64,000 nucleotides of DNA from Candidatus Saccharimonadia bacterium. GTDB lineage: Bacteria; Patescibacteriota; Saccharimonadia; Saccharimonadales; 2-12-FULL-41-12. The number at the start of each line of letters is the position of its first letter. Position 1 is the first letter of the stretch. The stretch is from assembly GCA_963717365.1 (NCBI GenBank), contig OY970327.1, forward strand, positions 651,599-715,598. The letters run 5' to 3'. The notes under the pieces were generated by a model, which was not told where the DNA came from, did not search any database, and was given only the letters and a program-made list of their open reading frames with translations. This document shows, one piece after another, positions 546-25,356 of the stretch. The translations under genes were made by a program, and so were the position numbers.

Positions 546-1367
546 ATGTATTTAGCAGTCGACATTGGCGGTACCAAGACATTGATGGCAGTATTTTCCG
601 CCAAAGGAAAATTACTGGAGTCAGTTCGGTTCGAAACGCCAAAAGACTACCCGGACTTCTTGAACGAACTCAAAAATACCTTTGAAAAACTTGAGCATAA
701 AGCTGATATAACCGTCTGTGTAGCTGGGGCGCCCGGGCGAATTGACCGGCGAACTAACCAGTCTGTTATTGCGTTCGGCAACCTTCCTTGGGAAAACGTG
801 GCGATTGGCGAAGCGCTTGAGGAAATTTGCGGTGTGCCGGCAGTACTTGAAAACGATGCGAATTTGGCTGGACTGTCTGAAGCAATACTGATCAGTCATG
901 CGTATAAAAAAGCTCTTTATATAACTATTAGTACTGGTATTGGTGGAGTAGTGATCATAAACGGTATAATTGATCCGGAATATGCCGATATGGAATTTGG
1001 CCATATGATCTTTGAACACGATGGCAAGCTGCAGAAGTGGCAAGACTTTGCTTCTGGCAAAGCTATTTTTAATAAGTACGGCATGCGAGCCAGTGATATC
1101 GATGATCCGCAGACCTGGTACGCCATCAGCCGCAATATCGCGCTGGGTCTGACCAACGTAATTACTACTGTAACGCCGGACGTAGTCATCGTTGGTGGCG
1201 GCGTAGGCAGTCATTTTGAAAAATTTTCCGACCGGTTGCATGAGGAGTTAATGCTTTTTGGCTCAAATTTAGTGTCGGTACCTCCCTTACGGGAAGCACT
1301 GAGAGCCGAAGAAGCCGTCATATATGGATGCTATGAATTCGCCCGCCAAATCAAAAACCAGCAGTAG
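546..1367 (+). CDS. ROK-family sugar kinase (glucokinase-like)
   Basis: 273-aa ORF. It has the N-terminal ATPase motif LAVDIGGTK, the ROK signature-like ENDANLAGLSEA, ISTGIGGG-like TISTGIGGVV and a C-terminal VIVGGGV. The usual CxCGxxGC zinc motif is absent (EFGHMIFEHDG instead), so this is a divergent member. Confidence 0.75.
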   Translation: MYLAVDIGGTKTLMAVFSAKGKLLESVRFETPKDYPDFLNELKNTFEKLEHKADITVCVAGAPGRIDRRTNQSVIAFGNLPWENVAIGEALEEICGVPAVLENDANLAGLSEAILISHAYKKALYITISTGIGGVVIINGIIDPEYADMEFGHMIFEHDGKLQKWQDFASGKAIFNKYGMRASDIDDPQTWYAISRNIALGLTNVITTVTPDVVIVGGGVGSHFEKFSDRLHEELMLFGSNLVSVPPLREALRAEEAVIYGCYEFARQIKNQQ

Positions 1368-1815
1368 TTTTAGCACATTATTGGCCGCTGTTAAGCGCGA
1401 CTTCCCTGCTATGCGCTTTGAGACTTCGGATACCTTTTCCTGGTCTGCCGAAGATAAGATAATTTACTACGACCCCGCGGCTGAAAATCCGGCTTGGTCT
1501 CTGTTACATGAACTGGGCCACATGAAGTATGGCCATAACACATACAATACTGACGCACGGTTAATTCGCATGGAAGTTGAAGCCTGGCAAAGTGCTAAGG
1601 AGTTAGCTGAACACTACGGACAGGCAATTAGCGATGAACATATTGAAGATTGTATGGATAGTTACCGAAACTGGCAGTATTTACGCAGTAAATGCCCGGT
1701 TTGCGCGCAGTCTGGGGTTGAAAAACAAAGCGGCCACTACCACTGCATTAACTGCCGGCATAACTGGACTGTTACGGCTAATCGTTTTTGCCGGGTGTAC
1801 CGTTTAACTAACTAA
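1324..1815 (+). CDS. HExxH zinc-metallopeptidase-like protein (ImmA/IrrE M78-like motif) with a C-terminal zinc ribbon
   Basis: 163-aa ORF containing WSLLHELGHMKYGH (an HExxH in ImmA/IrrE-like context) and C-terminal CPVC...18 aa...CINC. It overlaps the ROK gene by 44 nt, so the true start may be the ATG at 1333 or a later one. Confidence 0.5.
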   Translation: MDAMNSPAKSKTSSSFSTLLAAVKRDFPAMRFETSDTFSWSAEDKIIYYDPAAENPAWSLLHELGHMKYGHNTYNTDARLIRMEVEAWQSAKELAEHYGQAISDEHIEDCMDSYRNWQYLRSKCPVCAQSGVEKQSGHYHCINCRHNWTVTANRFCRVYRLTN

Positions 1816-1938
1816 ATTTTTAATCGGGATACCTACCTTCGGCTACTATAGTTGGACTTCATTAAACTTTCATTAACTCGAGCAATAGTATGTATGGTGC
1901 AGGTCAAGAGGTTAAAACTATCTTCAAAATAATTAAAA

Positions 1939-1971
1939 AGTCCCGCAGCGATAACTCGGCGCGGGACTTTT
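1939..1971. terminator. Bidirectional rho-independent terminator between convergent genes
   Basis: AGTCCCGC (1939-1946) pairs with GCGGGACT (1961-1968). The stem is flanked by AAAAA on the left and TTTT on the right, so it reads as hairpin plus U-tract on both strands. It lies between the + gene ending at 1815 and the - gene ending at 1986. Confidence 0.7.
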
Positions 1972-1985
1972 ACATTTTGTTAAGA

Positions 1986-2183
1986 CTATGCAGTCTTTTT
2001 GGTGCGGCGGCTGATGCGGCCACCTTTGGCGCCAGCAGCGCGGGCTAATTCGCGGTTAGCGAAGAAACCGCCGGTGCGGCCTTTTTTACCGCCTGCGGCA
2101 CCGATTTTTGCGTAAAAATCAGAACCGTATTTGGCTTTGTTAGTTTGAGCAGCAGCTTTGCCGCCATCTTTTGTTCCTGCCAT
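1986..2183 (-). CDS. Small KGG-repeat general stress protein (YciG-like)
   Basis: 65 aa, very basic and Gly-rich, with repeated GGKKG / GAKGG motifs (MAGTKDGGKAAAQTNKAKYGSDFYAKIGAAGGKKGRTGGFFANRELARAAGAKGGRISRRTKK). This is typical of the stress-induced KGG repeat family. GGGAG lies upstream. Confidence 0.6.
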   Translation of the reverse strand: MAGTKDGGKAAAQTNKAKYGSDFYAKIGAAGGKKGRTGGFFANRELARAAGAKGGRISRRTKKTA

Positions 2184-2223
2184 AATGTGAGGACTCCCGT
2201 TAGTACTTATTTACTCCGCCGAA

Positions 2224-2262
2224 TAATAAAAGAGGGCCGCCGTTTTACCGGTGAACCCTCTC
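2224..2262 (-). terminator. Rho-independent terminator of the G1 / small-partner transcription unit
   Basis: On the minus strand AGAGGG (2261-2256) pairs with CCCTCT (2236-2231), with an inner CCGG/CCGG-type sub-stem, followed by TTTATTATT. It sits about 60 nt after the stop at 2319. Confidence 0.5.
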
Positions 2263-2318
2263 TTGCTTATTCAAGACTAGGCAAATATTAACATACTAGT
2301 GCTAATGAGTCAACAATA

Positions 2319-2861
2319 TTATGGTGTCGTGGTAAAACCGGAACCTTCCAGGGAGTCAGGCTGCGGAGCGGTGCTGGCAGGAGCCGATTGGGCAGGCGCT
2401 TTTGGATCGCCAAGGTTAATTGGTGCTACTTCTATGATTTTTTTGGTGTCAGGCCGGTATAAGACGGCTTTCTTGGCTTTGGCATACATTACAACCCGGT
2501 CGCCATTCTGGGCTTTGGCAAAGAAGGCTTGGTTGCTGAGTTTGGTTGAGTCAACGACCGTGGCTATAGTAGGGTCTTCATCGGTTGGCAATTCAATTAA
2601 GCGGGAAACTTCCTGTTTAATCTTTTCTGTCTCGGCCTTGGCGGATTCCTGCGGGTTAGACAGGCGCTTCACTTCTTTACGCTGCTCATCATACGCCCGG
2701 TATCCAAAAGCACCTCCGGCGGCAATGAGCAGTACCAGCACTATAATAGCGAGGTAACTTTTTTTAATTTTTACGAAACGGGTTTTGCGATGTTTGTGCG
2801 TTTCTGCGGCAACCGATGCGGTTTCTGCATTCGACGCATTTTTTTTACTTACTTTGGCCAC
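2319..2861 (-). CDS. Single-pass membrane protein, partner of giant gene G1 (paralog of 11157..11843)
   Basis: 180 aa with a GTG start preceded by AGGA. It has a basic N-terminus, a TM helix (YLAIIVLVLLIAAGGAFGY), and a C-terminal domain TIATVVDSTKLSNQAFFAKAQNGDRVVMYAKAKKAVLYRPDTKKIIEVAPINLG. That domain aligns with SLVAVTDPAKLAEKSPVLFKNAQKDDVVLFYLNPDKTGKAVLYRPLTKKLIAIVDGVNLN of the 228-aa protein. Confidence 0.6.
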   Translation of the reverse strand: MAKVSKKNASNAETASVAAETHKHRKTRFVKIKKSYLAIIVLVLLIAAGGAFGYRAYDEQRKEVKRLSNPQESAKAETEKIKQEVSRLIELPTDEDPTIATVVDSTKLSNQAFFAKAQNGDRVVMYAKAKKAVLYRPDTKKIIEVAPINLGDPKAPAQSAPASTAPQPDSLEGSGFTTTP

Positions 2862-2951
2862 GACTATTATTCCTTTTTAGCTCTTGTTTTTACACTTATG
2901 CTTAACAGCATATATAAGAGTACGCTAAATATCAAGGAGATTCAGGGGTAG

Positions 2952-5900
2952 TTAATGGCTGGCTACCGGAGCCGGTGGGGGCGGATCGGCTGATAAGGCT
3001 ATCCAGGAGAGAGCCATGTCCTCAAGTGCTGGGCTGGCTAGAATAATTTCAAACTCTTCTTCGGTGACATTTTTATAGCTATACTGCGCGAATTTACCAT
3101 CGCCGAGGGTTAGTGAAATAACCGGCTTAGTTGTCTTTGGCTTGCTGAATTTCACCTTAACGCTCGTTTCGCCGGCTTTTACTACAGCAGTACCGGCGGT
3201 ATCGCTGTTCAGCGTAATTTGCCCCTTAACCGCCACATTGCCGTCAAACTGGGCGTCTTTTTCAAACCGCACCATTTCTTTAAATGTAGCCGGTCCCTTA
3301 ACTTCCAGGGCACCCTGGACGATAAGGTTAAGGTTCACCGTCAGGCCCTGGACGTTGGCGTAGCCCAGCACATTGATCTGGCCGTCAAACTGGACGTCTT
3401 TCTGGAAACGGGCCATTTCTTTAAACGTTGCCGGGCCATTAATTTCAACAGCACCTTGGACGATCAGATCAAGGTTTACGGTTAGTTTTTGAACATTAGT
3501 TTCACCGTTAATAATAGCGTTACCGTTGGCCGTTAAGTTGCCGATGGACAGATTCTCGAGGTCAATTTGCTGGGTATTACCTTGGCTGGCTGGCTGTTGT
3601 TCCAGATTGTTTACCCGTGCTTCCAACGACTCAAAGCGGCCATTGTATTCAAGGCCTTCTATGCGATCCGCCCGGATTGTGCCGGCTGTAATGTCGCCGT
3701 TAACCGTTAATGTGTTTGCGGAAACTGCATTCAGGCTGGCATTGCCTTGAGAATTTAAATGCTTAGCAATCTCACCGACAGCCTTCAAATTATAGAAGCT
3801 GAGTCCTTGGAAGTTAACTTCTTTATAGCCGTCCTCCCGCTGCTTCACTAATTCAGGGAAAATTTGTTCAAGTTCCTGGGCTATGACACCGTACTGAAGT
3901 CCGTGGTCAAGGTTAAGTTCGGGCATCTCTTCAACTTTAAAGTTGAAACTGACAACGTTTACACTGTTTAACTTATCAAGGACAGAGCCTACCGAGGTAA
4001 CGTCTTTCTTAACCCGAGCGTCTGAAATACCGGTGGCATCGTTGCGACAGGTACCGGCCGTTGTGATACCACCGCTAATTCTTACGCCGTTACCGATATA
4101 CTGGCCGGCGGTACATGCGGCGACAGTTACGCCGCTTAATCCAGCCTGCTGGTATACACCGCTGGCAACATTAAGGTTGGCTATGCCGGCTCCGAGGTTG
4201 TCTAAGGTCAATGTGGTGGTGGCAGCATTGTTCAGATCAATAGTTGTAGTTCCTGCGGCGTTACGCTGGAGAGTAGAGTCGGTATCGGATATAACAATCT
4301 TATTGCTTGCGCTATCGAGGGTAAGGTCTCCACTGCCGCCGCTAGCTAGCGTGAGACCAGTTGTACCAGTAATATTTGCCCCTACACCAGTAATAGATCC
4401 TGTTTCTGTAATATTGCCGCTGTTATTGTCGATACCCCCTGTAATATTTGCACCTCCGGCTAAAATGGTTAACCCAGATCCTATAATTGCTGTGCCGGAG
4501 GAGGAGGCGCAGCCTGAATCCGAAGTCTCTATACACAAACCTCCGCCCGTTATGTGAAGTCTTGAATCAGGGGCGCTTGTGCCAATGCCAACGCTGCCGT
4601 TAGCCAAAGCCGTAATTATGTCAGTGCCTGATCCGGTGCCGGTAGAAATATTTCCCCGTGTATCGGTAGAGATACTAAATGACCCGGCATTATCGAAGAA
4701 GAAGCCGGATTTTGCCAGTCCTGATTTAAGGGAAGCGATAACGCCGTCAGTACGGTCGATCATAATTGCCGCTCCGGTAGCAGTTTGCTGGACCAGAAGG
4801 TTGCCGTTAATAGCTACGCTTTCGCCGAATTGTACGGCCGTACCATCCAGGTCTGTGATTGCGCCAGCAGTGGTAATTTGGAGACCGGTAGTGCTTGAGC
4901 CCAATAATACCTGGTCATTAAGTACCAGACTGCCATCAATATCGAGCAGCGAACCATCGATAGCTACCTGAAGACCGGTAGCCGCCGAGCCTATATCTGT
5001 TATGTCGTTAAGCACGAGGTTGCCGGTTGGATCAAAAATGGCTCCATCGATGCTAAATGCGCCAGTTATAGTTAAGCCGCCAGTTCCCTGGATAAGGCCG
5101 CTTCCAGCCGTCACTCCGTTGCTGGATACAAGTCCGCTGGCATTTACCTGGAACTGGCTGGTTGAACCTACTGAGAAGAGACCGTCCGGTGTAAGGTCAC
5201 CGCCGACTCCCACATTGCCGCCTAGAGGGTTAAGAACCAAGTCGCGGCCGCCGCCCGATCCAAAGATATCATAAGCACCAATTTCAAAACGGCTGACCGT
5301 ATCACTGGTGCTGACCGAACGGAAATATCCATAGGCATTAAGTGTAGCATCCGTACCCATAAGGTTATATCCGGTGGTATATGTTCCAAATGTGCCATTG
5401 ATAGTACTGTTTCCAGTGATAGAGGCGCTTCCCGACGTGACCACCAGCCCTGTGCCAAACGTTCCTTGACCCTCCACATTCAAGTTTGCCAGCCCTGCCC
5501 CGCTGTTATTTATAGTGAACGCGGTGTCGCTGGCATTAGCCATGTTAAACGTAAGGCCGCTGGTTGTGGCGATGGTGCTTGCACCAAGGTTAACCAATCC
5601 AGAGCCGCTTGAGATTGTTAAGTTATTGGCACCGGTTGTAGATAAGGTTAAGGCACCGGCGTTAGTAACCAGCGGCGTGGTAACGCTGGTATCAAAGACC
5701 GGTGCTTCAGAGATGGTAATGCTGCCGCAGCTGCCGCCGCTGCCAAGGGTAATGACCGTGCCGCCGCCGGTGAGGTCGCCGGAGCCGGCGGCGCAGGTAA
5801 GCTGGGTATTGCCCTGGACTGCCGTGTTGGCGGCTGCGCCGTAGGTAACGCTCAGGCCAGGAGTACTGCCCTCGCCGGAGTTGGTACCGGTAATGGAAAG

Positions 5901-8900
5901 GCCAACCATTGTTCCCAGGTTCTGGACGTAGTCGCCGACCGTTTCGGCGCCCAGGTCAACGGCGTTGTTCTGGACGTCGTTGACGCTTAGTCCGGCCGTG
6001 AACGAGCCGGAGACGTCGCCGGCGGCCGGGCTTTCGCCGACGTTGACGTAGGCGGCGTCGAGTCCGCCGGCGGCGCCGAAGTTAGCCGTTGTCAGCACCG
6101 TTCCGCTAGCACCGTCGAAGGTGTAGGTGGCGGCTGCGCCGCTCGGAGTATTCATGACTATGGTAGCGTCGTTGGTGCCCTTTTCGAAGAACAGCTGGCC
6201 GTTCTCCAGGATACGCAGCTTTTCGCTGCCGGCCGTCGAGAAGACGATGTCGTCGGCGCCGGCCGAGGCGGCGGCTTGCAGATCCAATAGCCCGCCGGCG
6301 TTCTTAAACAGCGGGCTGGTAACGCTGGTATCAAAGACCGGTGCTTCAGAGATGGTAATGCTGCCGCAGCTGCCGCCGCTGCCAAGGGTAATGACCGTGC
6401 CGCCGCCGGTGAGGTCGCCGGAGCCGGCGGCGCAGGTAAGCTGGGTATTGCCCTGGACTGCCGTGTTGGCGGCTGCGCCGTAGGTAACGCTCAGGCCAGG
6501 AGTACTGCCCTCGCCGGAGTTGGTACCGGTAATGGAAAGGCCAACCATTGTTCCCAGGTTCTGGACGTAGTCGCCGACCGTTTCGGCGCCCAGGTCAACG
6601 GCGTTGTTCTGGACGTCGTTGACGCTTAGTCCGGCCGTGAACGAGCCGGAGACGTCGCCGGCGGCCGGGCTTTCGCCGACGTTGACGTAGGCGGCGTCGA
6701 GTCCGCCGGCGGCGCCGAAGTTAGCCGTTGTCAGCACCGTTCCGCTAGCACCGTCGAAGGTGTAGGTGGCGGCTGCGCCGCTCGGAGTATTCATGACTAT
6801 GGTAGCGTCGTTGGTGCCCTTTTCGAAGAACAGCTGGCCGTTCTCCAGGATACGCAGCTTTTCGCTGCCGGCCGTCGAGAAGACGATGTCGTCGGCGCCG
6901 GCCGAGGCGGCGGCTTGCAGATCCAATAGCCCGCCGGCGTTCTTAAACAGCGGGCTGGTAACGCTGGTATCAAAGACCGGTGCTTCAGAGATGGTAATGC
7001 TGCCGCAGCTGCCGCCGCTGCCAAGGGTAATGACCGTGCCGCCGCCGGTGAGGTCGCCGGAGCCGGCGGCGCAGGTAAGCTGGGTATTGCCCTGGACTGC
7101 CGTGTTGGCGGCTGCGCCGTAGGTAACGCTCAGGCCAGGAGTACTGCCCTCGCCGGAGTTGGTACCGGTAATGGAAAGGCCAACCATTGTTCCCAGGTTC
7201 TGGACGTAGTCGCCGACCGTTTCGGCGCCCAGGTCAACGGCGTTGTTCTGGACGTCGTTGACGCTTAGTCCGGCCGTGAACGAGCCGGAGACGTCGCCGG
7301 CGGCCGGGCTTTCGCCGACGTTGACGTAGGCGGCGTCGAGTCCGCCGGCGGCGCCGAAGTTAGCCGTTGTCAGCACCGTTCCGCTAGCACCGTCGAAGGT
7401 GTAGGTGGCGGCTGCGCCGCTCGGAGTATTCATGACTATGGTAGCGTCGTTGGTGCCCTTTTCGAAGAACAGCTGGCCGTTCTCCAGGATACGCAGCTTT
7501 TCGCTGCCGGCCGTCGAGAAGACGATGTCGTCGGCGCCGGCCGAGGCGGCGGCTTGCAGATCCAATAGCCCGCCGGCGTTCTTAAACAGCGGGCTGGTAA
7601 CGCTGGTATCAAAGACCGGTGCTTCAGAGATGGTAATGCTGCCGCAGCTGCCGCCGCTGCCAAGGGTAATGACCGTGCCGCCGCCGGTGAGGTCGCCGGA
7701 GCCGGCGGCGCAGGTAAGCTGGGTATTGCCCTGGACTGCCGTGTTGGCGGCTGCGCCGTAGGTAACGCTCAGGCCAGGAGTACTGCCCTCGCCGGAGTTG
7801 GTACCGGTAATGGAAAGGCCAACCATTGTTCCCAGGTTCTGGACGTAGTCGCCGACCGTTTCGGCGCCCAGGTCAACGGCGTTGTTCTGGACGTCGTTGA
7901 CGCTTAGTCCGGCCGTGAACGAGCCGGAGACGTCGCCGGCGGCCGGGCTTTCGCCGACGTTGACGTAGGCGGCGTCGAGTCCGCCGGCGGCGCCGAAGTT
8001 AGCCGTTGTCAGCACCGTTCCGCTAGCACCGTCGAAGGTGTAGGTGGCGGCTGCGCCGCTCGGAGTATTCATGACTATGGTAGCGTCGTTGGTGCCCTTT
8101 TCGAAGAACAGCTGGCCGTTCTCCAGGATACGCAGCTTTTCGCTGCCGGCCGTCGAGAAGACGATGTCGTCGGCGCCGGCCGAGGCGGCGGCTTGCAGCG
8201 CCAATAGCCCGCCGGCGTTCTTAAACAGCGGGCTGGTAACGCTGGTATCAAAGACCGGTGCTTCAGAGATGGTAATGCTGCCGCAGCTGCCGCCGCTGCC
8301 AAGGGTAATGACCGTGCCGCCGCCGGTGAGGTCGCCGGAGCCGGCGGCGCAGGTAAGCTGGGTATTGCCCTGGACTGCCGTGTTGGCGGCCGAGCCGTAG
8401 GTAACGCTAAGTCCCGGAGTACTGCCCTCGCCGGAGTTGGTACCGGTAATGGAAAGGCCAACCATTGTTCCCAGGTTCTGGACGTAGTCGCCGACCGTTT
8501 CGGCGCCCAGGTCAACGGCGTTGTTCTGGACGTCGTTGACGCTTAGTCCGGCCGTGAACGAGCCGGAGACGTCGCCGGCGGCCGGGCTTTCGCCGACGTT
8601 GACGTAGGCGGCGTCGAGTCCGCCGGCGGCGCCGAAGTTAGCCGTTGTCAGCACCGTTCCGCTAGCACCGTCGAAGGTGTAGGTGGCGGCTGCGCCGCTC
8701 GGAGTATTCATGACTATGGTAGCGTCGTTGGTGCCCTTTTCGAAGAACAGCTGGCCGTTCTCCAGGATACGCAGCTTTTCGCTGCCGGCCGTCGAGAAGA
8801 CGATGTCGTCGGCGCCGGCCGAGGCGGCGGCTTGCAGCGCCAATAGCCCGCCGGCGTTCTTAAACAGCGGGCTGGTAACGCTGGTATCAAAGACCGGTGC

Positions 8901-10862
8901 TTCAGAGATGGTAATGCTGCCGCAGCTGCCGCCGCTGCCAAGGGTAATGACCGTGCCGCCGCCGGTGAGGTCGCCGGAGCCGGCGGCGCAGGTAAGCTGG
9001 GTATTGCCCTGGACTGCCGTGTTGGCGGCCGAGCCGTAGGTAACGCTAAGTCCCGGAGTACTGCCCTCGCCGGAGTTGGTACCGGTAATGGAAAGGCCAA
9101 CCATTGTTCCCAGGTTCTGGACGTAGTCGCCGACCGTTTCGGCGCCCAGGTCAACGGCGTTGTTCTGGACGTCGTTGACGCTTAGTCCGGCCGTGAACGA
9201 GCCGGAGACGTCGCCGGCGGCCGGGCTTTCGCCGACGTTGACGTAGGCGGCGTCGAGTCCGCCGGCGGCGCCGAAGTTAGCCGTTGTCAGCACCGTTCCG
9301 CTAGCACCGTCGAAGGTGTAGGTGGCGGCTGCGCCGCTCGGAGTATTCATGACTATGGTAGCGTCGTTGGTGCCCTTTTCGAAGAACAGCTGGCCGTTCT
9401 CCAGGATACGCAGCTTTTCGCTGCCGGCCGTCGAGAAGACGATGTCGTCGGCGCCGGCCGAGGCGGCGGCTTGCAGCGCCAATAGCCCGCCGGCGTTCTT
9501 AAACAGCGGGCTGGTAACGCTGGTATCAAAGACCGGTGCTTCAGAGATGGTAATGCTGCCGCAGCTGCCGCCGCTGCCAAGGGTAATGACCGTGCCGCCG
9601 CCGGTGAGGTCGCCGGAGCCGGCGGCGCAGGTAAGCTGGGTATTGCCCTGGACTGCCGTGTTGGCGGCCGAGCCGTAGGTAACGCTAAGTCCCGGAGTAC
9701 TGCCCTCGCCGGAGTTGGTACCGGTAATGGAAAGGCCAACCATTGTTCCCAGGTTCTGGACGTAGTCGCCGACCGTTTCGGCGCCCAGGTCAACGGCGTT
9801 GTTCTGGACGTCGTTGACGCTTAGTCCGGCCGTGAACGAGCCGGAGACGTCGCCGGCGGCCGGGCTTTCGCCGACGTTGACGTAGGCGGCGTCAAGAGTA
9901 GATGCATAGTTACTGAGAGTCAGAACACCGTTGCCAAGCCTGATGCGGCTGACGCCGCTGCCCTCGTTGGTTACGATAAATTCACTGTCAGAGCCGGTAG
10001 GCGGCCCAAATTCTATTATGTCTGCCGCTATTGTGGGTGAGCCGTCACTTTCCCGCACCCCGATTGAGGAGCCGCTGCTTGACGTACATTGCCACTCTTT
10101 AGCAGTTGCGTTCCATTTGAGTGATTGCCCGTCGCTGCAGCCCCCCAGCAAACGCAGACCATCGGCACTAATCTCCAGGCCAGAATTGTTGCTTGTCGTA
10201 GCAGTGGTGTTTGTTGTGCTCACATCCACGCAATCCGGTGAGCCTTGGATACAAAGCGTACCATCTTGATCGGGCAAATTGATATTACGGTCTGCCGTTA
10301 AAGCTAAGAAGTCTAAAATACCGGTATTGGCACCGGTGGTTTTGTTTAGAATTTCCGATTGTTTGGCCTGAAAGGCATAAGGCACAGCCGTCAGCTTTAT
10401 CCGCGGCGTCATTTCGCCGTCCCAAACCGGGGTACCGCTGCCCCCAATATTCATCGTCAGCCAGTGGTCCTGATCCCAATCTATTGTCGGTGGAAAACCG
10501 CTTACGTCGCCCAAATTAGCTGATAGGTAACCATTGACTACCCTAACCTTGCTTCCCCCTGTCCTAGTCTCCGTCCATTCGCTTGTTCCGCCGGTACTAG
10601 CGGAGTAGAGGTTAAATTCAATATTGTAGAAGCCGTCCGGTACGACGTTGCCGGCATTGGAAAGCAGGCGCGCCTGGAAGTTGAGATTGCTGGAAGTAGC
10701 CGCATACACGGGGGCAGGCGCGCCCATGCGCGTATATGAAATAACAGCAACAGAGGTCAGAATTACAAAATATACAAAAACACGCAGCAACCGCGTGACA
10801 GGGGAAATTCTAGAACTGAATGCCGATTTGCTAAATCGACACGGATATATCCGTTTTAACAT
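2952..10862 (-). CDS. Giant surface fibre protein G1 (2636 aa): signal/anchor, conserved N-domain, 213-aa tandem repeats, S74-like chaperone domain, C-terminal module
   Basis: Uninterrupted 7.9-kb ORF starting at ATG 10862. The N-terminal hydrophobic segment VFVYFVILTSVAVISY is followed by APAPVYA|ATSS. The ectodomain is rich in T/G/A/N/S/V. It has 6.6 copies of a 213-aa unit. SDARVKKD...GVIAQELEQIFPELV sits near the C-terminus. Confidence 0.85.
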   Translation of the reverse strand: MLKRIYPCRFSKSAFSSRISPVTRLLRVFVYFVILTSVAVISYTRMGAPAPVYAATSSNLNFQARLLSNAGNVVPDGFYNIEFNLYSASTGGTSEWTETRTGGSKVRVVNGYLSANLGDVSGFPPTIDWDQDHWLTMNIGGSGTPVWDGEMTPRIKLTAVPYAFQAKQSEILNKTTGANTGILDFLALTADRNINLPDQDGTLCIQGSPDCVDVSTTNTTATTSNNSGLEISADGLRLLGGCSDGQSLKWNATAKEWQCTSSSGSSIGVRESDGSPTIAADIIEFGPPTGSDSEFIVTNEGSGVSRIRLGNGVLTLSNYASTLDAAYVNVGESPAAGDVSGSFTAGLSVNDVQNNAVDLGAETVGDYVQNLGTMVGLSITGTNSGEGSTPGLSVTYGSAANTAVQGNTQLTCAAGSGDLTGGGTVITLGSGGSCGSITISEAPVFDTSVTSPLFKNAGGLLALQAAASAGADDIVFSTAGSEKLRILENGQLFFEKGTNDATIVMNTPSGAAATYTFDGASGTVLTTANFGAAGGLDAAYVNVGESPAAGDVSGSFTAGLSVNDVQNNAVDLGAETVGDYVQNLGTMVGLSITGTNSGEGSTPGLSVTYGSAANTAVQGNTQLTCAAGSGDLTGGGTVITLGSGGSCGSITISEAPVFDTSVTSPLFKNAGGLLALQAAASAGADDIVFSTAGSEKLRILENGQLFFEKGTNDATIVMNTPSGAAATYTFDGASGTVLTTANFGAAGGLDAAYVNVGESPAAGDVSGSFTAGLSVNDVQNNAVDLGAETVGDYVQNLGTMVGLSITGTNSGEGSTPGLSVTYGSAANTAVQGNTQLTCAAGSGDLTGGGTVITLGSGGSCGSITISEAPVFDTSVTSPLFKNAGGLLALQAAASAGADDIVFSTAGSEKLRILENGQLFFEKGTNDATIVMNTPSGAAATYTFDGASGTVLTTANFGAAGGLDAAYVNVGESPAAGDVSGSFTAGLSVNDVQNNAVDLGAETVGDYVQNLGTMVGLSITGTNSGEGSTPGLSVTYGAAANTAVQGNTQLTCAAGSGDLTGGGTVITLGSGGSCGSITISEAPVFDTSVTSPLFKNAGGLLDLQAAASAGADDIVFSTAGSEKLRILENGQLFFEKGTNDATIVMNTPSGAAATYTFDGASGTVLTTANFGAAGGLDAAYVNVGESPAAGDVSGSFTAGLSVNDVQNNAVDLGAETVGDYVQNLGTMVGLSITGTNSGEGSTPGLSVTYGAAANTAVQGNTQLTCAAGSGDLTGGGTVITLGSGGSCGSITISEAPVFDTSVTSPLFKNAGGLLDLQAAASAGADDIVFSTAGSEKLRILENGQLFFEKGTNDATIVMNTPSGAAATYTFDGASGTVLTTANFGAAGGLDAAYVNVGESPAAGDVSGSFTAGLSVNDVQNNAVDLGAETVGDYVQNLGTMVGLSITGTNSGEGSTPGLSVTYGAAANTAVQGNTQLTCAAGSGDLTGGGTVITLGSGGSCGSITISEAPVFDTSVTSPLFKNAGGLLDLQAAASAGADDIVFSTAGSEKLRILENGQLFFEKGTNDATIVMNTPSGAAATYTFDGASGTVLTTANFGAAGGLDAAYVNVGESPAAGDVSGSFTAGLSVNDVQNNAVDLGAETVGDYVQNLGTMVGLSITGTNSGEGSTPGLSVTYGAAANTAVQGNTQLTCAAGSGDLTGGGTVITLGSGGSCGSITISEAPVFDTSVTTPLVTNAGALTLSTTGANNLTISSGSGLVNLGASTIATTSGLTFNMANASDTAFTINNSGAGLANLNVEGQGTFGTGLVVTSGSASITGNSTINGTFGTYTTGYNLMGTDATLNAYGYFRSVSTSDTVSRFEIGAYDIFGSGGGRDLVLNPLGGNVGVGGDLTPDGLFSVGSTSQFQVNASGLVSSNGVTAGSGLIQGTGGLTITGAFSIDGAIFDPTGNLVLNDITDIGSAATGLQVAIDGSLLDIDGSLVLNDQVLLGSSTTGLQITTAGAITDLDGTAVQFGESVAINGNLLVQQTATGAAIMIDRTDGVIASLKSGLAKSGFFFDNAGSFSISTDTRGNISTGTGSGTDIITALANGSVGIGTSAPDSRLHITGGGLCIETSDSGCASSSGTAIIGSGLTILAGGANITGGIDNNSGNITETGSITGVGANITGTTGLTLASGGSGDLTLDSASNKIVISDTDSTLQRNAAGTTTIDLNNAATTTLTLDNLGAGIANLNVASGVYQQAGLSGVTVAACTAGQYIGNGVRISGGITTAGTCRNDATGISDARVKKDVTSVGSVLDKLNSVNVVSFNFKVEEMPELNLDHGLQYGVIAQELEQIFPELVKQREDGYKEVNFQGLSFYNLKAVGEIAKHLNSQGNASLNAVSANTLTVNGDITAGTIRADRIEGLEYNGRFESLEARVNNLEQQPASQGNTQQIDLENLSIGNLTANGNAIINGETNVQKLTVNLDLIVQGAVEINGPATFKEMARFQKDVQFDGQINVLGYANVQGLTVNLNLIVQGALEVKGPATFKEMVRFEKDAQFDGNVAVKGQITLNSDTAGTAVVKAGETSVKVKFSKPKTTKPVISLTLGDGKFAQYSYKNVTEEEFEIILASPALEDMALSWIALSADPPPPAPVASH
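3745..4040 (-). other. Peptidase S74-like intramolecular chaperone / autoproteolysis domain of G1
   Basis: Sequence GISDARVKKDVTSVGSVLDKLNSVNVVSFNFKVEE...LQYGVIAQELEQIFPELVKQREDGYKEVNFQGLSFYNLKAVGEIAKHL. The Ser-Asp codons are at complement 4020-4025, with Lys at +5. This pattern matches the endosialidase / tail-spike C-terminal chaperone family. Confidence 0.65.
5679..9892 (-). repeat. 639-bp (213-aa) in-frame tandem repeat, about 6.6 copies, in two subfamilies of identical copies
   Basis: Antisense shadow ORFs recur at 6127, 6766, 7405, 8044, 8683 and 9322, a period of 639. The three copies spanning 8044-9892 are identical to each other. The copies spanning 5679-8043 are also identical to each other. 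The two sets differ at about 7 nt per unit, for example gcagcgcc vs gcagatcc (LLALQ vs LLDLQ) and YGSAAN vs YGAAAN. Confidence 0.9.
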
Positions 10863-10927
10863 GTGTTTTTGTTTGTTTTTGGTTTTTGTTTTTGTTTTTA
10901 CTATATATTTAGTAAATAACTAGTCAC

Positions 10928-11917: not shown

Positions 11918-14900
11918 TTACTGTTGGATAAAGGTATTTGGATTTGTAACGCTGAGGGCGGTCCATGAGAACTGGACGTTCTCTGTGGCCGGCTGGCTGA
12001 GCATAATATCAAATCCGGTTGACGTTACGTTGCGGTAGGCATACTGGGCAAAGCCGCCCTCACCGAGAGTAAGGGAGATAACCGGCTGCTGGCTGAATGG
12101 CTTTGTGAAGCTGACATGGACACTCTGCTGCCCGGCATTGATTGCCGCGTAGCCGCCGGTGTTGCTATTGAACCTGGCCTCGCCGTTAAAGCTGGTAAGG
12201 CCGTTGAGCTGCACGTCGCCATTAAAAGTTGCCAGCTGCTCAAACAGGGCCGTACCCTGGAAAGTTGAGCTGCCCTTCACTACCAATGCGCCTTCGGTAA
12301 ACATATCTAGGGTTATATTCAGGTTGCCAACTGTCAGGTTTTCCAGGTCAATTTGCTGGCTTGGACCGGTGTTGCTTGCCTGACTTTGCTCAAGACTATT
12401 TACCCGGGTTTCCAGAGCTGATAACTTAACGTCCAAGCCGTCTATCTGCTCAAATTGTTCCATACTGATATCGCCGACTTTTTGGTTAAGCTCAATTAGG
12501 CCTTTTAAGGTGTATATATTAAGGGCGTCGTATTTTACCCGGAAATAGCCGTCTTGGCCCTGAGCAACTAGTTCAGGAAAGATCTCAGCTATCTCCTGGG
12601 CAATAACACCAGTGCCGCGGTCGCAGCTTAAATCAAGAACCGTATAGTCGGGATCGTCACATTTAAACTCAAACGTAACAGTATTAATGCTCTGGAGTTT
12701 ATCTAAAATTCCATCTTCAATGCTGGCGACATTTTCTTTCAGGCGGGCGTCAGAAAGTCCGGCATCATCAGCTTCGCAGGTACCAGCTGTAATGATACCG
12801 CCTGTTGAGGTGGCGTTACCCATAAATTGGTTAGCGGCACAATCCAGAGTGATGCCATTTACGCCATCATTCTGATATACGCCCGTCCCTGTTACATTAA
12901 AGTTGCCACTGGTAGATATGGTACTGCTGGCAGCTATGGTGGTAGCGCCGGAAACAGCGCCGGCGCTGGTTATACCACCGGCATTATTGTTTATGCCGCC
13001 GGTTATATTTGCCCCCCCGCCGGTAACTGTCAGTCCGGTAATGTTCTGCAAGGCACCGGCGTTAGTTAATCGTGTCACTCCGGCAGTTTGAAGGCTACCT
13101 TCGCTGATATTAAAGTTAGCAACTCCCAAGCCGCTGTTGGTTAGTATAAAAGTAGTAGTTAACAGATCATTCAGATCGGTTGTGAAAGAACCGGCCCCAG
13201 TCCTTTGGACTGAAGTATCAGAACTATCAATAACGAGAGTGTTACTGGCACTGTTTAACGTAAGGTTTGCGCTGCCTCCTGAGCTAACCGTCAGTGCGCC
13301 AGTTCCGGTAATACTCGCGATATTCTGCAAAGCACCGGTACTGGTTAGCCGTACGGTACCATTAGTGGCGACCGAGTTAAAGTTTATATTGCCGTCTCCG
13401 TCCAACAGGTCTGCCATTTCTGTTGTGGCGGAAAGTCCATAGAATAAGAGGGACTGGTTTCTTACTTGTAAAAATCCGTTGGCACCCGTAGAAACTAGTT
13501 CTGGAAATATTAACGCAAGCTGCTGGGCTATTACTCCCGTGCGATCATCGCAGGTTAAATCAAGAGCTGCGTACAACACGTCCAGGCAAAGATAGTTGTA
13601 ATCAACAACGTTTACATTCTTTATCTGGCTGAGCATGTTTGTTTTGGACACCACATTTGTTTTAAGGGTGCCGTCTGAAATACCGGTGTCATCAGGTTCG
13701 CAGGTTCCTGCCGTGATTATACCGCCGCTGACGGTTTGGTTGCCCAGGAATTCATTAGCTGCACAGTCTGGACTGATACCGTTTACTCCATCATTTTGAT
13801 AAACGCCAGTACCCGTTACATTGAAGTTTCCACTGGTAGAGATGGTATTGTTGGCAGCAATAGTAGTAGCGCCGGCAATTGCGCCCGTATTAGTGATACC
13901 GCCGGTGTTATTGTTAATACCGCCGCTGATACTGGCACCGCCGCTAGCGACTGTCAGCCCCGTAATACCGGTAAGGGTCCCTGTTATAGTACTATTCCCT
14001 GTTACAGTTATGCCGCCAGCTGTGACTGCCAAGCTGCCACCGAATGAGCCTCCGCCTTCGACGCTTAAACTAGCGGTTTGTGTTCCGTCGGAATTTGTAA
14101 CAGATAAGGTAGTGTTGGCACCGGCGTTTAGCAAATCGATAATTGTAGTACCGGCAGCACTGCGCCGCAAAGTGCCTGAACCGATATTAACCACGCCGTT
14201 GCCACTCGTTAAAGTAAGTGCCCCTGTACCTTGGGTTTGTACGAGTAGGTTTTGGTTATTGGCAGCTTGGATAGTTGTTGCGCCGGCTCCGGCGAAAGTC
14301 AGCGCGGTACCGGTAAATGTATTGGTGTTTATAGTACCGCCAACCGTTATATTATTTGTTACGTTAATCGCTACCCCGGCTGCTGAAAAAGTATTGGCTA
14401 AAGTAAAGTTATTTGCCTGGTTTTCATATGCTATGTTGGTGAGCGTTCCGGCAGTATTAATATCCACGCCGTTAAGCTGGAAGGCACCGGCAGTAGTATT
14501 AATGTTGCCTGACGCGGTAACACTAGTAAAACTTGGCGTAGCCGACAATGAAACGTTGCCACAAGTGCCGCCAGTCCCCAGGGTTATGGTATTGCCACCG
14601 CCGCTTAGGTTGCCAGTTCCAGATGCACAAGTGATCTGGGTATTGCCTTCTACCGCCGTGCCTGCACCGGAACCGTACTGAACATTTAGAGTAGCGGTAC
14701 CGCCGGCTCCTAGGGTAAGTGTTCCGCCGCCGCCAAGGCCTGTGCCAGCAGCTACAGTAACTGCTGTATTGCCCTGGACAGCGGTGTTGGCGGCTGAGCC
14801 GTAGAGCACGCTGATGGTTGGAGTACTGCCTTCGCCGGTGTTGCCGGTGGTAGATAGGCCGGTTAGGGTGCCGAGGGTGGCTATGTAGTTGCCTACAGTG

Positions 14901-17900
14901 TCAGTACCTAGGTCAACACTGTTGTTCTGTACACTGTTTACGAGGAAGCCAGCCGTGAATGAACCGGAGATGTCACCGGCAGCCGGTGCCTGCCCTTCGT
15001 TTACATAGGTAGCATCAAGCGTAGTGGTGTAGTTGGCGGTAGTCAGGACGGTGCCGGTGGCGCCTGAGAAGGTGTAGGTGGCAGCGGCGCCGGGGGCGGC
15101 TACCGCAAAGGTAACGTCGTTAGTGCCCTTTTCGAATTTCAGGTCGCCGTTTTCAAGGATACGCACTGCTTCGCCGCCGGCCGTATTAAAGATGATGTCG
15201 TCGGCACCGGCGGTGGCGGTTGTACCAACAGTAAGTATTCCGGCGCTTTGTACTATTGGTGTAGTAACGCTGGTGCCAAAGCTAACGGCAGCATTGGTAG
15301 TTATGTTACCGCAAGAACCAGCTGTACCTAAGGCAAAGCTGTTGCCGCCACCGGTGAGGTTACCAGTGCCGGATGCACAGGTAATCTGGGTATTGCCCTG
15401 GACAGCGGTGTTGGCGGCAGAGCCGTACAGTACTGAGATAGTTGGCGTGCTGCCTTCTCCGGTGTTGCCGGTGGTGCTGAGGCCGGTTAGGGTGCCAAGG
15501 ACGGATATGTAGTTGCCGGTTGTTTGAGTCCCTAAGGTAACGGCGTCAGCGTCGATCTCGCCATTAGAAATTGAGGTACCGAGGGTTGCTACCAGCGATC
15601 CGCTGGAAATACCCAGCCCTGTACCTGTTAAATCAGTGAAGGCGTCGCCGTTAAGCGTAAATGTGTCGCCGGTCTCAATGGTTAGGCCACCGTTGGCGGT
15701 AATCAGGCCGGCCGCGGCCACCGTGCCGGTGAAGCTGACAGCGTTGCCAATAGTCTGGCCGTTAATAGTGCCACTGGTCACGTTGCCATTGGTTGCGACC
15801 TGGAAGGCATCAGCCGTACCGGCCGTCAGCGTACCGGATACATCTAGGTTGCCGGTAACGTTAGTGTTATCTTGCAGCTCTATGGTTGAACCGCTGTTAA
15901 GTGTTATCAGGTCAGCACTGGTAATGGCCAGGTCATTGCCCACTCCTGTTGCTGAGATTGTTAAGTTCCCAGCATTAGTAACGATTGGCGTCGTAACACT
16001 GGTGCCAAAACTAACCGCCGCATTAGTTGTAAGGTTACCGCAAGATCCGGCTGTACCAAGGGCAAAGCTGTTACCCCCACCGCTGAGGTTACCAGTGCCG
16101 GATGCGCAGGTGATCTGGGTGTTGCCTTGAACGGCAGTGTTGGCGGTTGAACCGTAAAGGACGCTGATGGTTGGAGTTGAGCCCTCTCCAGTGTTGCCGG
16201 TAGTGCTTAGGCCGGTTAATGAGCCTAAGGTAGCTATGTAGTTGCCTACGGTATCTGTCCCTAAGTCTACGCTGTTGTTTTGGACGCTATTAACGAGGAA
16301 ACCAGCGGTGAATGAACCGCTGATGTCACCGGCTGATGGATTTTCGCCAGTGTTAACGTACGTTCCGTCCAGAGTAGCTGTGTAATTAGCGGTGGTGAGA
16401 ATCGTACCAGTAGCGCCTGAGAACGTATAGTTAGCGGGAGCGCCAGACGGGGTAGCAATAATAAAGGTGGCGTCGTTAGTACCACGCTCAAACCGTAAAT
16501 CACCGTTTTCCAGTATGCGGAAAGTTTCGCTTCCGGCGTTGCTAAAGACAATGTCATCAACACCAGCCGTAGCGGTCGATGAGATAGCAAGCGATCCAGC
16601 GTTCGTTAGTGTTGGCGTGGTCACAGAAGTTGCAAAGCTCACAGCTGCGTTAGTTGTAATATTGCCGCATGATCCGGCTGAACCAAGGGCGAAACTGTTA
16701 CCGCCACCTGAAAGGTTGCCCGTCCCACTGGCGCAGGTGATCTGGGTATTGCCTTGGACGGCGGTATTGGCGCCTGAGCCATAAAGAACGGCTATGGTTG
16801 GAGTGCTGCCTTCGCCGGTGTTGCCGGTGCTAGATAAGCCAGTCAGCGTGCCTAGGGTAGCAATGTAGTTTCCAACCGTATCTGTGCCCAGATCAACTGA
16901 GTTATTCTGGACGCTGTTAACCAAGAAGCCGGCAGTAAATGAACCGGAAATATCACCGGCTGTTGGGTTTTCACCAGTATTAACATAGGTACCGTCAAGC
17001 GTAGCCGTATAATTAGCGGTGGTGAGAATCGTACCGGTAGCGCCGCTAAAGGTATACGTAGCAGCCGCGCCGGGAGTTACTACTGCAAAAGTCACGTCGT
17101 TGGTACCTTTTTCAAACCTAAGGTCGCCGTTTTCCAAAATACGCACTACTTCACTGCCAGCTGTGTTAAAGATTATGTCGTCGGCGCCTCCGGTAGCGGT
17201 GGTACCGATACTCATAGTGCCTGCATTCTGAATAGTTGGCGTAGTTACAGAGGTTGAGAAACTGACTGCCGCGTTAGTAGTAAGGTTGCTGCAGCTACCG
17301 CCCGTACCAAGCGTGAGCGTATTGCCGCCCCCACTCAGATTGCCAGTTCCAGATGCGCAGGTAATTTGGGTATTACCTTGGACGGCGGTATTGGCTGCTG
17401 AACCGTATAGCACACTGATGGTTGGAGTACTGCCTTCTCCAGTGTTGCCGGTGGTAGATAAGCCAGTTAAGCTGCCCAAGGTTGCTATGTAGTTGCCGAC
17501 TGTATCTGTTCCAAGATCAACGCTGTTATTCTGGACGCTGTTAACTAAGAAGCCAGCAGTAAATGAGCCGCTAATGTCACCGGTGGCAGGGCTTTCACCA
17601 GTGTTTACGTAGCCGGTGTCCAGGTTGGTGGCGTAGTTTCCGGTGGTTAATATGGTGCCGCTGACACCGCTAAAGGTGTAGGTAGCAGCCGCGCCGGGAG
17701 CCGCAAAGGCTAAGGTTATATCATTGGTGCCCTTCTCGACTCTGACATCGCCGTTTTCTAAGAACCGCATCACTTCGTTGCCAGCCGTGCTCAAGACAAT
17801 GTCGTCAGCACCGGCCGTAGCGGTTGTAGTCAGATTTAGAGCCCCGGCGGTGGTTATTGTTGGCGTAGTAACTGAGGTACCAAAGCTAACAGCCGCATTA

Positions 17901-20900
17901 GTAGTAATGTTACCGCAACTGCCAGCTGAACCAAGGGCGAAGCTGTTGCCACCGCCACTTAAGTTGCCAGTTCCAGATGCACAGGTGATCTGGGTATTGC
18001 CCTGGACGGCGGTGCCCGCGCCAGAACCGTAGAGAACTGCCAAAGTAGGCGTAGAGCCTTCTCCGGTGTTGCCGATGGTTGAGAGACCGGTGAGAGTGCC
18101 TAGAGTTGCTATGTAGTTGCCGGTAGTCTGTGTACCTAGAGTAACTGCGTCGGCGTCAATCTCACCATTAGAAATTGAGGTACCAAGGGTTGCTACCAGC
18201 GATCCGCTTGAAATACCCAGTCCGGTGCCTGTTAAATCAGTAAATGTGTCTCCGTTAAAGGTAAAGGTATCACCCGCTTCAATGATTAGACCGCCGTTAA
18301 CACTTAACAGCGCGGAGAACATACCGGCACCGGTTACACTTAGATCGCCACCCAACAAACTCAGACCGCGAGTACTGTCGATTTCAATATTAGAACCATT
18401 CTGAGCAAGCCAAGAGCTGGATAAGCTATTACTACCGGTATATAGAGGAATTCGATTGGTTGTACCGGAGCCAGTGATAGTTCCGGCCGCACCGCCATCG
18501 TCGTTGTCGCAGGTTAGAACACCGCTGGCATTGACGGTTAGAGCACCGCCGTTATCATAAGTAGAACAGTTGAAACCAGTTAAAATGATCTGGTCAGCAC
18601 TGGTAAGTGTTAAGTCGTTGCCGGCTCCTGTTGTTGAAATGACTAATCCTCCAGCATTGGTTATCAGCGGTGTAGTAACACTGGTAGCAAACGATGGAGC
18701 CGCGCTAATGCTCAGGTTGCCACAACTGCCGGCTGAACCGAGAGCAAAGCTATTGCCACCACCTGTGAGATTACCGGTACCGCTAGCACAAGTGATCTGG
18801 GTGTTGCCTTGGACAGCGGTGTTGGCGGCTGAACCGTAGAGGACGCTGATGGTTGGAGTACTGCCTTCGCCGGTGTTGCCAGTGGTGCTTAGGCCAGTCA
18901 GTGTGCCGAGGACAGATACATAATTGCCAGTAGTTTGCGCACCTAACGTGACGGCATCAGCATCAATTTCGGCATTAGAGATAGATGTGCCGAGAGTAGC
19001 CTGCAGTGATCCGCCGGAAATGGCTAAGCCGGTGCCTGTAAGATCAGTGAACGCATCACCGTTCATAGTGAATGTATCACCTGCTTCAACGGTTAGGCCA
19101 CCGTTAGCACTAATCAGGCCAGCTGCAGCCAGTGTGCCAGTGAAGCTGGCGCTGGCACCGATGGTTTGTCCGTTAACGGTGCCACTGGTTACATCGCCAT
19201 TTGCCACCACTTGGAAAGCGTTTGCCGTACCCGCTATTAAGGTTCCGGACACATCCAGACTACCAGTAATGTTAGTGTTATCTTGCAGTTCTATGGTTGA
19301 ACCGCTGTTAAGTGTTATCAGGTCAGCACTGTTAATGGTCAGGTCATTGCCTGCCCCAGTAGCTGAAAGTGTTAGGTTGCCGGCATTGGTAACGGTTGGC
19401 GTAGTGACACTGGTTGCAAAACTAACCGCGGCATTAGTAGTAATATTTCCACATGATCCAGCTGAACCAAGAGCAAAGCTATTGCCACCACCTGTGAGAT
19501 TACCGGTACCACTGGCGCAGGTGATCTGGGTGTTGCCTTGGACAGCGGTGTTGGCGGCTGAACCGTAGAGGACGCTGATGGTTGGGGTGGAACCTTCGCC
19601 AGTATTGCCAGTGGTTGAGAGACCTGTCAGGGTGCCTAGGACGGATATGTAGTTGCCTACTGTATCTGTACCTAGGTCAACTGAATTGTTTTGGACACTG
19701 TTAACTAAGAAGCCAGCAGTAAATGAGCCGCTAATGTCACCGGTGGCAGGGCTTTCACCAGTGTTTACGTAGCCGGTGTCCAGGTTGGTGGCGTAGTTTC
19801 CGGTGGTTAATATGGTGCCGCTGACACCGCTAAAGGTGTAGGTAGCAGCCGCGCCGGGAGCCGCAAAGGCTAAGGTTATATCATTGGTGCCCTTCTCGAC
19901 TCTGACATCGCCGTTTTCTAAGAACCGCATCACTTCGTTGCCAGCCGCGCTAAAGACAATGTCGTCAGCCCCTGCAGTAGCGGTAGTAGCGATGGCAAGC
20001 GAACCGGCATTTTGCAATGTTGCGGTGTTCACACTAGTAAACGATGGAGTGGCGGTCATACTGATGGCGTTACAAGTTCCACCGGTGCCAAGCGTTATAG
20101 TGTTTCCGCCGCCAGAAAGATTACCGCTGGTGCTGCTACAAGTAACTTGGGTATTGCCTTGGACGGCAGTGTTGGCACCTGAGCCGTATATAACGCTGAG
20201 CGTAGGAGTGGAACTTTCACCGGTGTTGCCGGTAGTATTAAGACCAGTCAGGGCACCGAGAGTTGCTACGAAATTACCAGTAGTTTGAGTGCCTAGTGTT
20301 ACTGCATCGGCATCAATTTCTCCATTAGATATAGAGGTACCAAGTATTGCCTGTAGGGCACCGCCAGAAATCGATAATCCGCTGCCGGTCAGATCACTAA
20401 AGGCTTCGCCATTGATGGTGAAGCTATCGCCTGTCTCTATTGTCAGGCCGCCGTTGGCGGTTAACAACGCGGAGAACATACCGGCACCAGTAACATCCAA
20501 ATTGCCTCCAAGTAAGCTCAGGCCACGGGTACTGTCGATCTCAATACTTGATCCGTTTTGCGCCAACCATGAAGTTGATAGGCTGTTTGCACCGGTGTAC
20601 AGCGGTATTCGATTGGTAATACCCGAACCCGTGATAGTTCCGGCCGCACCGCCATCGTCGTTGTCGCAGGTTAGAACACCGCTGGCATTGACGGTTAGAG
20701 CACCGCCGTTATCATAAGTAGAACAGTTGAAACCAGTTAAAATGATCTGGTCAGCACTGGTAAGAGTTAAGTCATTACCGGCTCCTGTTGTTGAAATGAC
20801 TAATCCTCCAGCATTGGTTATCAGCGGTGTGGTAACACTGGTAGCAAATGAAGCGGCAGCGTTGGTGGTAATATTTCCGCACGAACCGCCCGTACCCAGA

Positions 20901-24808: not shown

Positions 24809-24878
24809 TTTGTTAGATTTTTGAACTACTTTTGTGTTCGTTATCTGTTTCTTATGTCTGTTAAGAAAGCTTATGCAT

Positions 24879-25347: not shown

Positions 25348-25356
25348 ATACATAAA

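Follow-up and report, generated by a model that had tools for sequence, protein, structure and literature searches.

A near-perfect repeat array in the giant gene G1

The stretch of DNA analysed here (64,000 nt of contig OY970327.1, from a Candidatus Saccharimonadia bacterium; hereafter the window) carries four giant minus-strand genes, which encode proteins of 2636, 4334, 3537, and 5495 amino acids (aa) and occupy 75% of the 64-kb window. G1, the gene considered here, is a single 7.9-kb open reading frame (ORF) on the minus strand (2952-10862) encoding the 2636-aa protein, with an identical protein (P0001) on record in NCBI/ENA. Within G1 (5678-9893, minus strand), a unit of 639 nt (213 aa) is repeated 6.6 times, in tandem and in frame, and the copies in this array form two blocks of mutually identical sequence.

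When the window is compared with itself at a lag of 639 nt, 5678-9254 matches throughout save for seven positions (7560, 7561, 7752, 7754, 7770, 7773, and 7776), and a repeat search of the window returned seven copies at a spacing of exactly 639 nt. Tandem Repeats Finder (TRF) missed the array, as its longest period is 500, hence the use of lag analysis. In gene orientation the array corresponds to nt 970-5185 and aa 324-1729, with codon phase 0 at its start, a period of 3 x 213, and an ORF that is uninterrupted throughout. Block A, which is the N-proximal block as G1 lies on the minus strand, comprises units 1-3 (9255-9893, 8616-9254, and 7977-8615; together 7977-9893), whilst block B comprises units 4-6 (7338-7976, 6699-7337, and 6060-6698) and a seventh unit consisting of the first 382 nt only (5678-6059), identical to units 4-6 over that length; all are on the minus strand. 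Copies of the same block are 100% identical and copies of different blocks 98.9% identical, with 7 nt differing per unit. A preliminary description of this DNA agrees with the lag analysis in its coordinates and copy numbers, in the sequences that it quotes, and in the changes of amino acid, and 4.2 kb of perfect periodicity is beyond the reach of chance.

The seven differences between the blocks are confined to 217 nt of the unit, the other 422 nt being invariant across all copies. Three of them, at unit nt 201, 204, and 207, are synonymous (CCG GGA CTT in block A and CCT GGC CTG in block B, both Pro-Gly-Leu), with the remainder exchanging Ser (TCG) in block A for Ala (GCA) in block B at unit nt 223 and 225, and Ala (GCG) for Asp (GAT) at unit nt 416 and 417. 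In unit 3 the 217-nt segment spans 8199-8415 on the minus strand, with differences at 8415, 8412, 8409, 8393, 8391, 8200, and 8199, and the same offsets apply in each unit. Synonymous sites within each block are likewise all identical, over 1.9 kb in block A and 2.3 kb in block B, which supports a recent origin of the identity, in keeping with the preliminary description, where it was read as a sign of very recent amplification or ongoing homogenisation. Old repeats held identical by purifying selection on the protein would account for identity of the amino-acid sequence only, and are ruled out by the identity of the synonymous sites; furthermore, the same module has drifted to 60-77% nucleotide identity in an ortholog of G1 (locus L002) and in the neighbouring giant gene G2, which holds about 12 copies of it. 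The divergence of the G2 copies indicates that identity is not enforced by the module itself.

The remainder of the G1 protein suggests a fibre. A hydrophobic segment at aa 25-43 (10734-10790, minus strand; hydropathy maximum of 1.84 at aa 26-44), followed by the sequence PVYA|AT, precedes an Ala-rich stretch and is a putative signal peptide or membrane anchor. The N-terminal region beyond it (aa 46-323; 9894-10727, minus strand) leads into the array, and the first ~200 residues of this end of the protein are common to most homologous giant proteins, with query aa 1-200 covered by 67-79 of 118 homologs and aa 201-400 by 17-21 of 118. Past the array, the distal ~550 residues (aa ~1730-2279; 4026-5677, minus strand) form a non-repeated, Gly/Ala/Thr/Ser-rich shaft or tip which opens as a diverged continuation of the unit and runs up to a Peptidase_S74 intramolecular-chaperone domain (aa 2280-2340; 3843-4025, minus strand) matching Pfam PF13884 with 56.6 bits against a cutoff of 22. 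The domain opens with SDARVKK, the aligned counterpart of which is SDRRIKK in the tail-fibre chain 6F45 and SDERLKR in the tail-fibre chain 8JOV; the T5 L-shaped fibre 8HQZ is a further match to the domain. The SDxRxK start is intact, with Ser2280 and Lys2285 five residues apart, at what we take to be the positions of the Ser-Lys dyad known from work on the K1F endosialidase, which releases the chaperone in phage endosialidases and tail fibres.

In phages the S74 domain drives trimerisation of the fibre before it. By analogy, the G1 protein would form a trimeric fibre and lose its last 357 residues, the C-terminal region past the S74 core (aa 2341-2636; 2952-3842, minus strand) being released together with the chaperone if autocleavage occurs. 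The domain is thus consistent with the preliminary description's reading of G1 as a fibre gene. The homologs of G1 are giant proteins of Saccharimonadia/Patescibacteria metagenome-assembled genomes (MAGs), named by their sources, where named at all, as "tail fiber domain-containing", "beta strand repeat-containing", or "adhesin".

The 213-aa unit has no relative in Pfam, NCBIfam, or the sequences of the PDB, the only matches being DUF7948, below its cutoff, and glucanase carbohydrate-binding-module chains at E = 0.06. A profile of the unit found just 415 cluster representatives among 1.84 billion proteins, and the genome loci bearing the module belong overwhelmingly to Candidatus Saccharibacteria/Saccharimonadales MAGs. 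The unit is composite: most relatives share no more than its first 130-150 residues, a common module that has an invariant pair of Cys residues together with a G-x-G-x-L-x-GGG motif and is followed in many relatives by other sequences, while the full unit with its "ENG..FEKG..ATYTF" tail is rare, with 23 non-redundant copies among the 120 homologs listed. AlphaFold2 (AF2) monomer models of the unit show little regular secondary structure, with a mean pLDDT (predicted local distance difference test) of 48.5 from 17 sequences and 66.0 from 55 sequences. A Foldseek comparison of the unit model with the PDB gave no significant match (best E = 0.2), the top non-significant matches being chains of intertwined trimers (VgrG, T4 gp34, and a pyocin spike; E >=0.2, TM <=0.28), which are compatible with an obligate trimer and would be no more than a hint of one.

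Orthologous arrays and signs of recombination

The closest relative of the G1 protein, P0002, is encoded on CAWIAU010000001.1, from the Nanopore-assembled soil MAG MFD01275.bin.1.89, where the downstream gene is also conserved with that of the G1 locus (58% identity). The P0002 gene (locus L001) carries 8.8 copies of a 627-nt (209-aa) unit without a single mismatch, and their place in the protein is that of the G1 array. A third ortholog, P0003 (L002/L003), has three copies at ~72% nucleotide identity, with the same result in both of its short-read assemblies, from the Joint Genome Institute (JGI) and Logan, and in P0005, the fourth ortholog, there are two to three copies that have diverged. 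Between species, the unit is 76-80% identical at the protein level and the non-repeated N-terminal region 71-77%; as the two have diverged alike, the unit has been inherited vertically and its homogeneity arose separately in each lineage. On this comparison of sequences, amplification and homogenisation are recent, lineage-specific, and recurrent. The preliminary description had proposed either recent independent amplifications or ongoing homogenisation; the orthologs bear out lineage-specific events and are compatible with both.

Copy number thus differs among species-level relatives (6.6, 8.8, and ~3 diverged copies). Such free variation among orthologs, in the length of the unit as well as in its number (6.6 x 213 aa, 8.8 x 209 aa, and ~3 diverged), together with the amplification of several different unit families in different giant genes, would also be expected of a real but neutral and transient burst of duplication, tolerated by a modular shaft whose length has no selected role. 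Against this stand the reading frame, which is kept in every case, and the observation that highly identical adjacent domains are generally disfavoured, their occurrence in surface proteins having been argued to be selected for length variation (PMC8201768). Neither point is decisive; we nevertheless consider a neutral burst unlikely.

Two features of the arrays bear on how homogeneity arose. Firstly, five of the seven differences between blocks A and B lie within 25 nt, and the remaining two are adjacent, an arrangement with P ~1e-4 under random placement. Because the differences are clustered in this way, the two patches suggest conversion patches, or remnants awaiting conversion, in preference to point mutations that arose independently. 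Local divergence in the first patch is 20%, resembling that between unhomogenised units; a search of the window allowing <=6 mismatches found no donor for the A- or B-specific patches elsewhere. Secondly, the homogeneous arrays end fractionally, with a 0.6 copy in the window and a 0.8 copy at locus L001, and each fractional end coincides exactly with the end of similarity to an older, partial third unit. Fresh duplication would give whole copies, whereas an array that stops at the limit of older homology implies recombination among repeats that were already present. Together, the patches and the fractional ends favour recombination or gene conversion among units that already existed over fresh duplication followed by point mutation.

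The composition of the arrays is also distinctive. The G+C fraction of the G1 array is 0.65, compared with 0.41-0.56 elsewhere in the window, and its G+C fraction at third codon positions (GC3) is 0.79, compared with 0.49-0.52 in the rest of the gene. Likewise, GC3 is 0.60 in the array at L001 (10931-16432) and 0.42-0.48 in the flanks of the same gene, and 0.71 in the array at L026 (13523-18617) against 0.5 in its flanks; every homogenised Saccharimonadia array examined has a GC3 above that of its own gene's flanks, and the rise is not seen in the unhomogenised ortholog L002. In a polarised comparison with an unhomogenised ortholog, restricted to codons that keep the amino acid and the first two bases, synonymous changes towards GC outnumber those towards AT by 65:13 in the array and by 124:84 in the flanks (Fisher P = 1.3e-4). 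Raised GC3 may therefore reflect GC-biased gene conversion in arrays that recombine often, and is put forward as a lead and not as a result.

The same composition could be read as the mark of a foreign cassette, imported recently by horizontal transfer or by recombination with a GC-richer relative and amplified thereafter, with the contrast in GC and GC3 between the array and its surroundings in its favour. The unit is, however, as diverged from the orthologous units as the N-terminal regions are from one another and occupies the same position, no donor-like sequence is present in the window, and the other homogenised arrays have raised GC3 as well, making a foreign origin very improbable.

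Reality of the array and its assembly

Taken together, these observations make it likely that the array is genuine, that it was very recently amplified and homogenised, and that it forms part of the shaft of a giant, tail-fibre-like surface protein, secreted and anchored at its N-terminus, in a soil Saccharimonadia bacterium. From the evidence above we infer the surface location, the trimeric fibre, its cleavage, the mechanism of recombination, and any role of length variation.

The alternative is that the copy number, the perfect identity, or the AAA/BBB order was made by the assembler or the consensus step, whether through an unbridged repeat with few spanning reads, through multi-mapped reads that average the copies, or through a chimera of two strains. 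To place the array among others, 79 loci were surveyed, 76 of them retrieved by means of the module. Arrays that are both long and >=97% identical occur only in the "contig_N" contigs of the Microflora Danica (MFD) project, at loci L001/L004/L008, L026, and L034, all from one genome, and at L062, with none in any NODE_ or k141_ short-read contig among the 79 loci; several short-read MAG contigs end inside these giant genes. The genome MFD01275.bin.1.89 holds four near-perfect arrays and one 2.7-copy repeat (2.7-8.8 copies, one array being cut by the end of the locus), which sit in different giant genes. The restriction of near-perfect long arrays to Nanopore/Flye MFD contigs agrees with the warning in the preliminary description that short-read assemblers mis-size such structures. 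Microflora Danica assemblies were made from Nanopore reads with Flye and one round of Medaka, at a median read N50 of 6.1 kb (PMC12313526).

An origin in assembly or polishing is favoured by the fact that all comparable arrays come from Nanopore/Flye assemblies and measure 3.6-5.5 kb, close to that read N50. On the other side, the periods of nine of nine near-perfect arrays are multiples of 3 (P = 5e-5) and the giant ORF stays open in every array, which argues strongly that the arrays are real coding features. The differences between blocks A and B, moreover, outlasted the consensus step, so that the copies were not simply averaged; the array occupies the same protein position as the diverged units of its orthologs; and an artefact would not raise GC3. 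We therefore judge an artefact to be quite unlikely.

Several points nonetheless weigh against the array being a genuine and recently homogenised part of a surface fibre. The exact copy number and the perfect identity are those of one assembly and provisional to that extent, and rare differences among the copies could be lost in consensus polishing. The arrays are all of 3.6-5.5 kb, close to the read N50, a possible ceiling effect by which larger arrays may be truncated or missing. The short-read assemblies of P0003 could have collapsed identical copies, and no second genome of the window's species was present in the collections searched, so that the comparison is one between species; a 36-nt exact pattern from the unit gave 0 matches in JGI metagenomes, and a whole-protein scan of GTDB representative genome contigs found nothing. 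The polarised GC test was not significant for L001. Finally, the surface location of the G1 protein is predicted from its hydropathy profile, and the AF2 models of the unit are of low to moderate confidence.

Genomic setting and relation to known surface proteins

G1 lies in cellular chromosomal DNA, as the window contains ribosomal RNA (rRNA) and transfer RNA (tRNA) genes and there is no phage gene context among its neighbours. The 23S rRNA gene (25822-29359) matches its model over 3538 nt, compared with a model length of 2925 nt, and so carries ~600 nt of insertions; it is accompanied by a 5S rRNA gene (25355-25469), and no 16S rRNA gene was found in the window. The genes for tRNA-Ala and tRNA-Ile (63289-63660), in the order Ala then Ile, lie 34 kb upstream of the 23S gene on the same strand; these two tRNAs normally occupy the 16S-23S spacer, and here the giant genes G3 and G4 sit between them and the 23S gene. 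Nine neighbouring ORFs compared with PHROGs gave no phage structural, tail, or packaging matches, and two weak matches, to a family of unknown function and to a metallo-protease family. A ROK-family kinase is also encoded in the window, as is a DivIC-like sequence whose weak match falls below the Pfam cutoff. A prophage or phage tail fibre gene was accordingly rejected as an identity for G1, its surroundings being rRNA, the ROK kinase, the DivIC-like gene, and giant genes.

Directly before the ATG of G1 is an A-rich, imperfect hexanucleotide leader of the form ~(AAAAAC)x6 (10864-10899, minus strand; TRF period 6, 6.2 copies), in which, although it occupies the usual ribosome-binding place of the gene, no Shine-Dalgarno sequence is visible. 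Upstream of the leader is a promoter-like site, GTGACT-16-TATAGT (10900-10927, minus strand), so called by its match to the consensus only and not by functional evidence.

The other giant genes share elements with G1. The fibre-like protein of G2 (4334 aa; 11918-24922, minus strand) begins with MerR/HTH_17 domains of DNA-binding type (aa 55-150), followed by a collagen triple-helix repeat, the copies of the G1 module described above, and a Peptidase_S74 domain; this unusual architecture, with the helix-turn-helix domains first, is common to many homologs, which JGI names "excisionase family DNA binding protein". G3 (3537 aa; 34326-44939) has no match at all in Pfam and contains internal repeats, both dispersed and tandem, at 36323-40526 (>=90% identity; lags of 408, 2652, and 5766). 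G4 (5495 aa; 45602-62089, minus strand) ends in a Peptidase_S74 domain and carries an array of ~4.0 copies of a 1188-nt (396-aa) unit with 0 mismatches (51696-56404, minus strand), beside which lies a second repeat of 2.1 copies of 1185 nt with 18 mismatches (57312-59763, minus strand). In the window, G1 and G4 thus each hold a perfect or near-perfect array with about four copies or more.

Amongst described systems, G1 is closest to the periscope type of variable-length surface protein, and would represent a new lineage and a new module, not a new kind of system. The stalk of a periscope protein consists of tandem, near-identical domains, the identity of which at the DNA level promotes intragenic recombination, such that repeat number, and with it reach, varies between strains (PMC8201768). 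Examples include Sgo_0707 with its SHIRT domains, SasG, Rib/alpha C, Esp, and CdrA (Whelan et al. 2021, PMC8201768). G1 likewise has a long in-frame array of units that are near 100% identical in DNA, with a repeat number that differs between related species-level genomes; for both, intragenic recombination is proposed, and arrays of this kind are reliably sized only with long reads (PMC8201768). G1 differs from the periscope proteins in its lineage, Saccharimonadia of the Candidate Phyla Radiation (CPR), in contrast to the cultured pathogens surveyed, and in its 213-aa unit, an undescribed module outside Pfam and NCBIfam. Its end is a phage-type, putatively cleavable S74 chaperone, which would make it probably a trimeric fibre as opposed to a monomeric rod of globular domains, and its anchor is apparently N-terminal.

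Phage fibres and spikes with an S74 domain (the K1F endosialidase, T5 pb1 (8HQZ), and the S16 long tail fibre (6F45)) share with G1 the SDxRxK start following a long Gly/Ala/Thr/Ser-rich, beta-rich region. Unlike them, G1 is chromosomal, lying beside rRNA with no phage genes near, has an N-terminal hydrophobic segment, is several times longer, and continues for ~300 residues after the S74 core. The trimeric autotransporter adhesins, such as BadA and the YadA family, have variable numbers of neck and stalk repeats, and G1 would resemble them as a long, presumably trimeric fibre in which the number of modules determines how far the stalk extends; its trimerisation device, however, would be the cleavable S74 chaperone. 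Assignment of G1 to the trimeric autotransporter adhesins was rejected, as Pfam finds in it neither a YadA-type C-terminal anchor nor the head, neck, or stalk domains of these adhesins.

Giant surface proteins have been reported in CPR bacteria and tied to host attachment, with Vampirococcus lugosii encoding ten giant proteins of 1392-4163 aa that are linked to its fibrous cell surface (PMC8080830). The window resembles these cases in coming from a tiny-genome, presumably host-attached bacterium which spends much of its coding capacity on giant genes (75% of the window), and in having repeat regions that break or confuse short-read assemblies. A Gracilibacterium surface gene that broke short-read assembly contains a 9-nt repeat encoding the tripeptide PTD, with hypervariable nucleotides (PMC6851277), in contrast to the 639-nt units of G1, which are without nucleotide variation.

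The history that we propose for the array begins with an ancestral run of two to three diverged copies of the ~210-aa module, which would have served as a foothold for homologous recombination. Misaligned exchange between adjacent units, by unequal crossing-over, gene conversion, or replication slippage, would then have expanded the array and overwritten its differences up to the limit of the older homology, leaving 6.6 copies in two neighbour-homogenised blocks and seven remaining differences as two small patches, converted or unconverted. Perfect identity over 639 nt would be expected to lead to frequent further gain and loss in one-unit steps of 213 aa per chain, and the shaft of the fibre would thereby become a stalk of variable length, with the C-terminal S74 intramolecular chaperone trimerising the fibre and then cleaving itself off at Ser2280.

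Most CPR genomes are short-read MAGs, in which such arrays seem to be missed or to cause breaks, and protein lengths and domain counts in public records are probably biased as a result. The raised GC3 of homogenised arrays would provide a modest natural experiment on whether bacterial gene conversion is GC-biased. For Patescibacteria, physical contact with the host cell is essential, and to our knowledge the contact machinery studied in them has been almost only type IV pili; any role for variation in the length of the G1 fibre would probably lie in host-cell contact by an episymbiont. A bolder proposal, which we regard as tentative and rather doubtful, is that soil Saccharimonadia maintain a battery of trimeric fibres derived from tail fibres, with rapidly length-switching shafts encoded by perfect arrays of 0.6-1.2-kb units in several giant genes per genome, which recombination holds in flux, often enough to leave a GC-biased conversion signature, and which short-read MAGs conceal; cells might by this means retune their reach or specificity towards host bacteria, or escape phages that use the fibres as receptors. 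The giant surface-fibre genes of Patescibacteria may carry identical arrays that vary in copy number between relatives, and if so, these would constitute a simple and testable source of surface variation.

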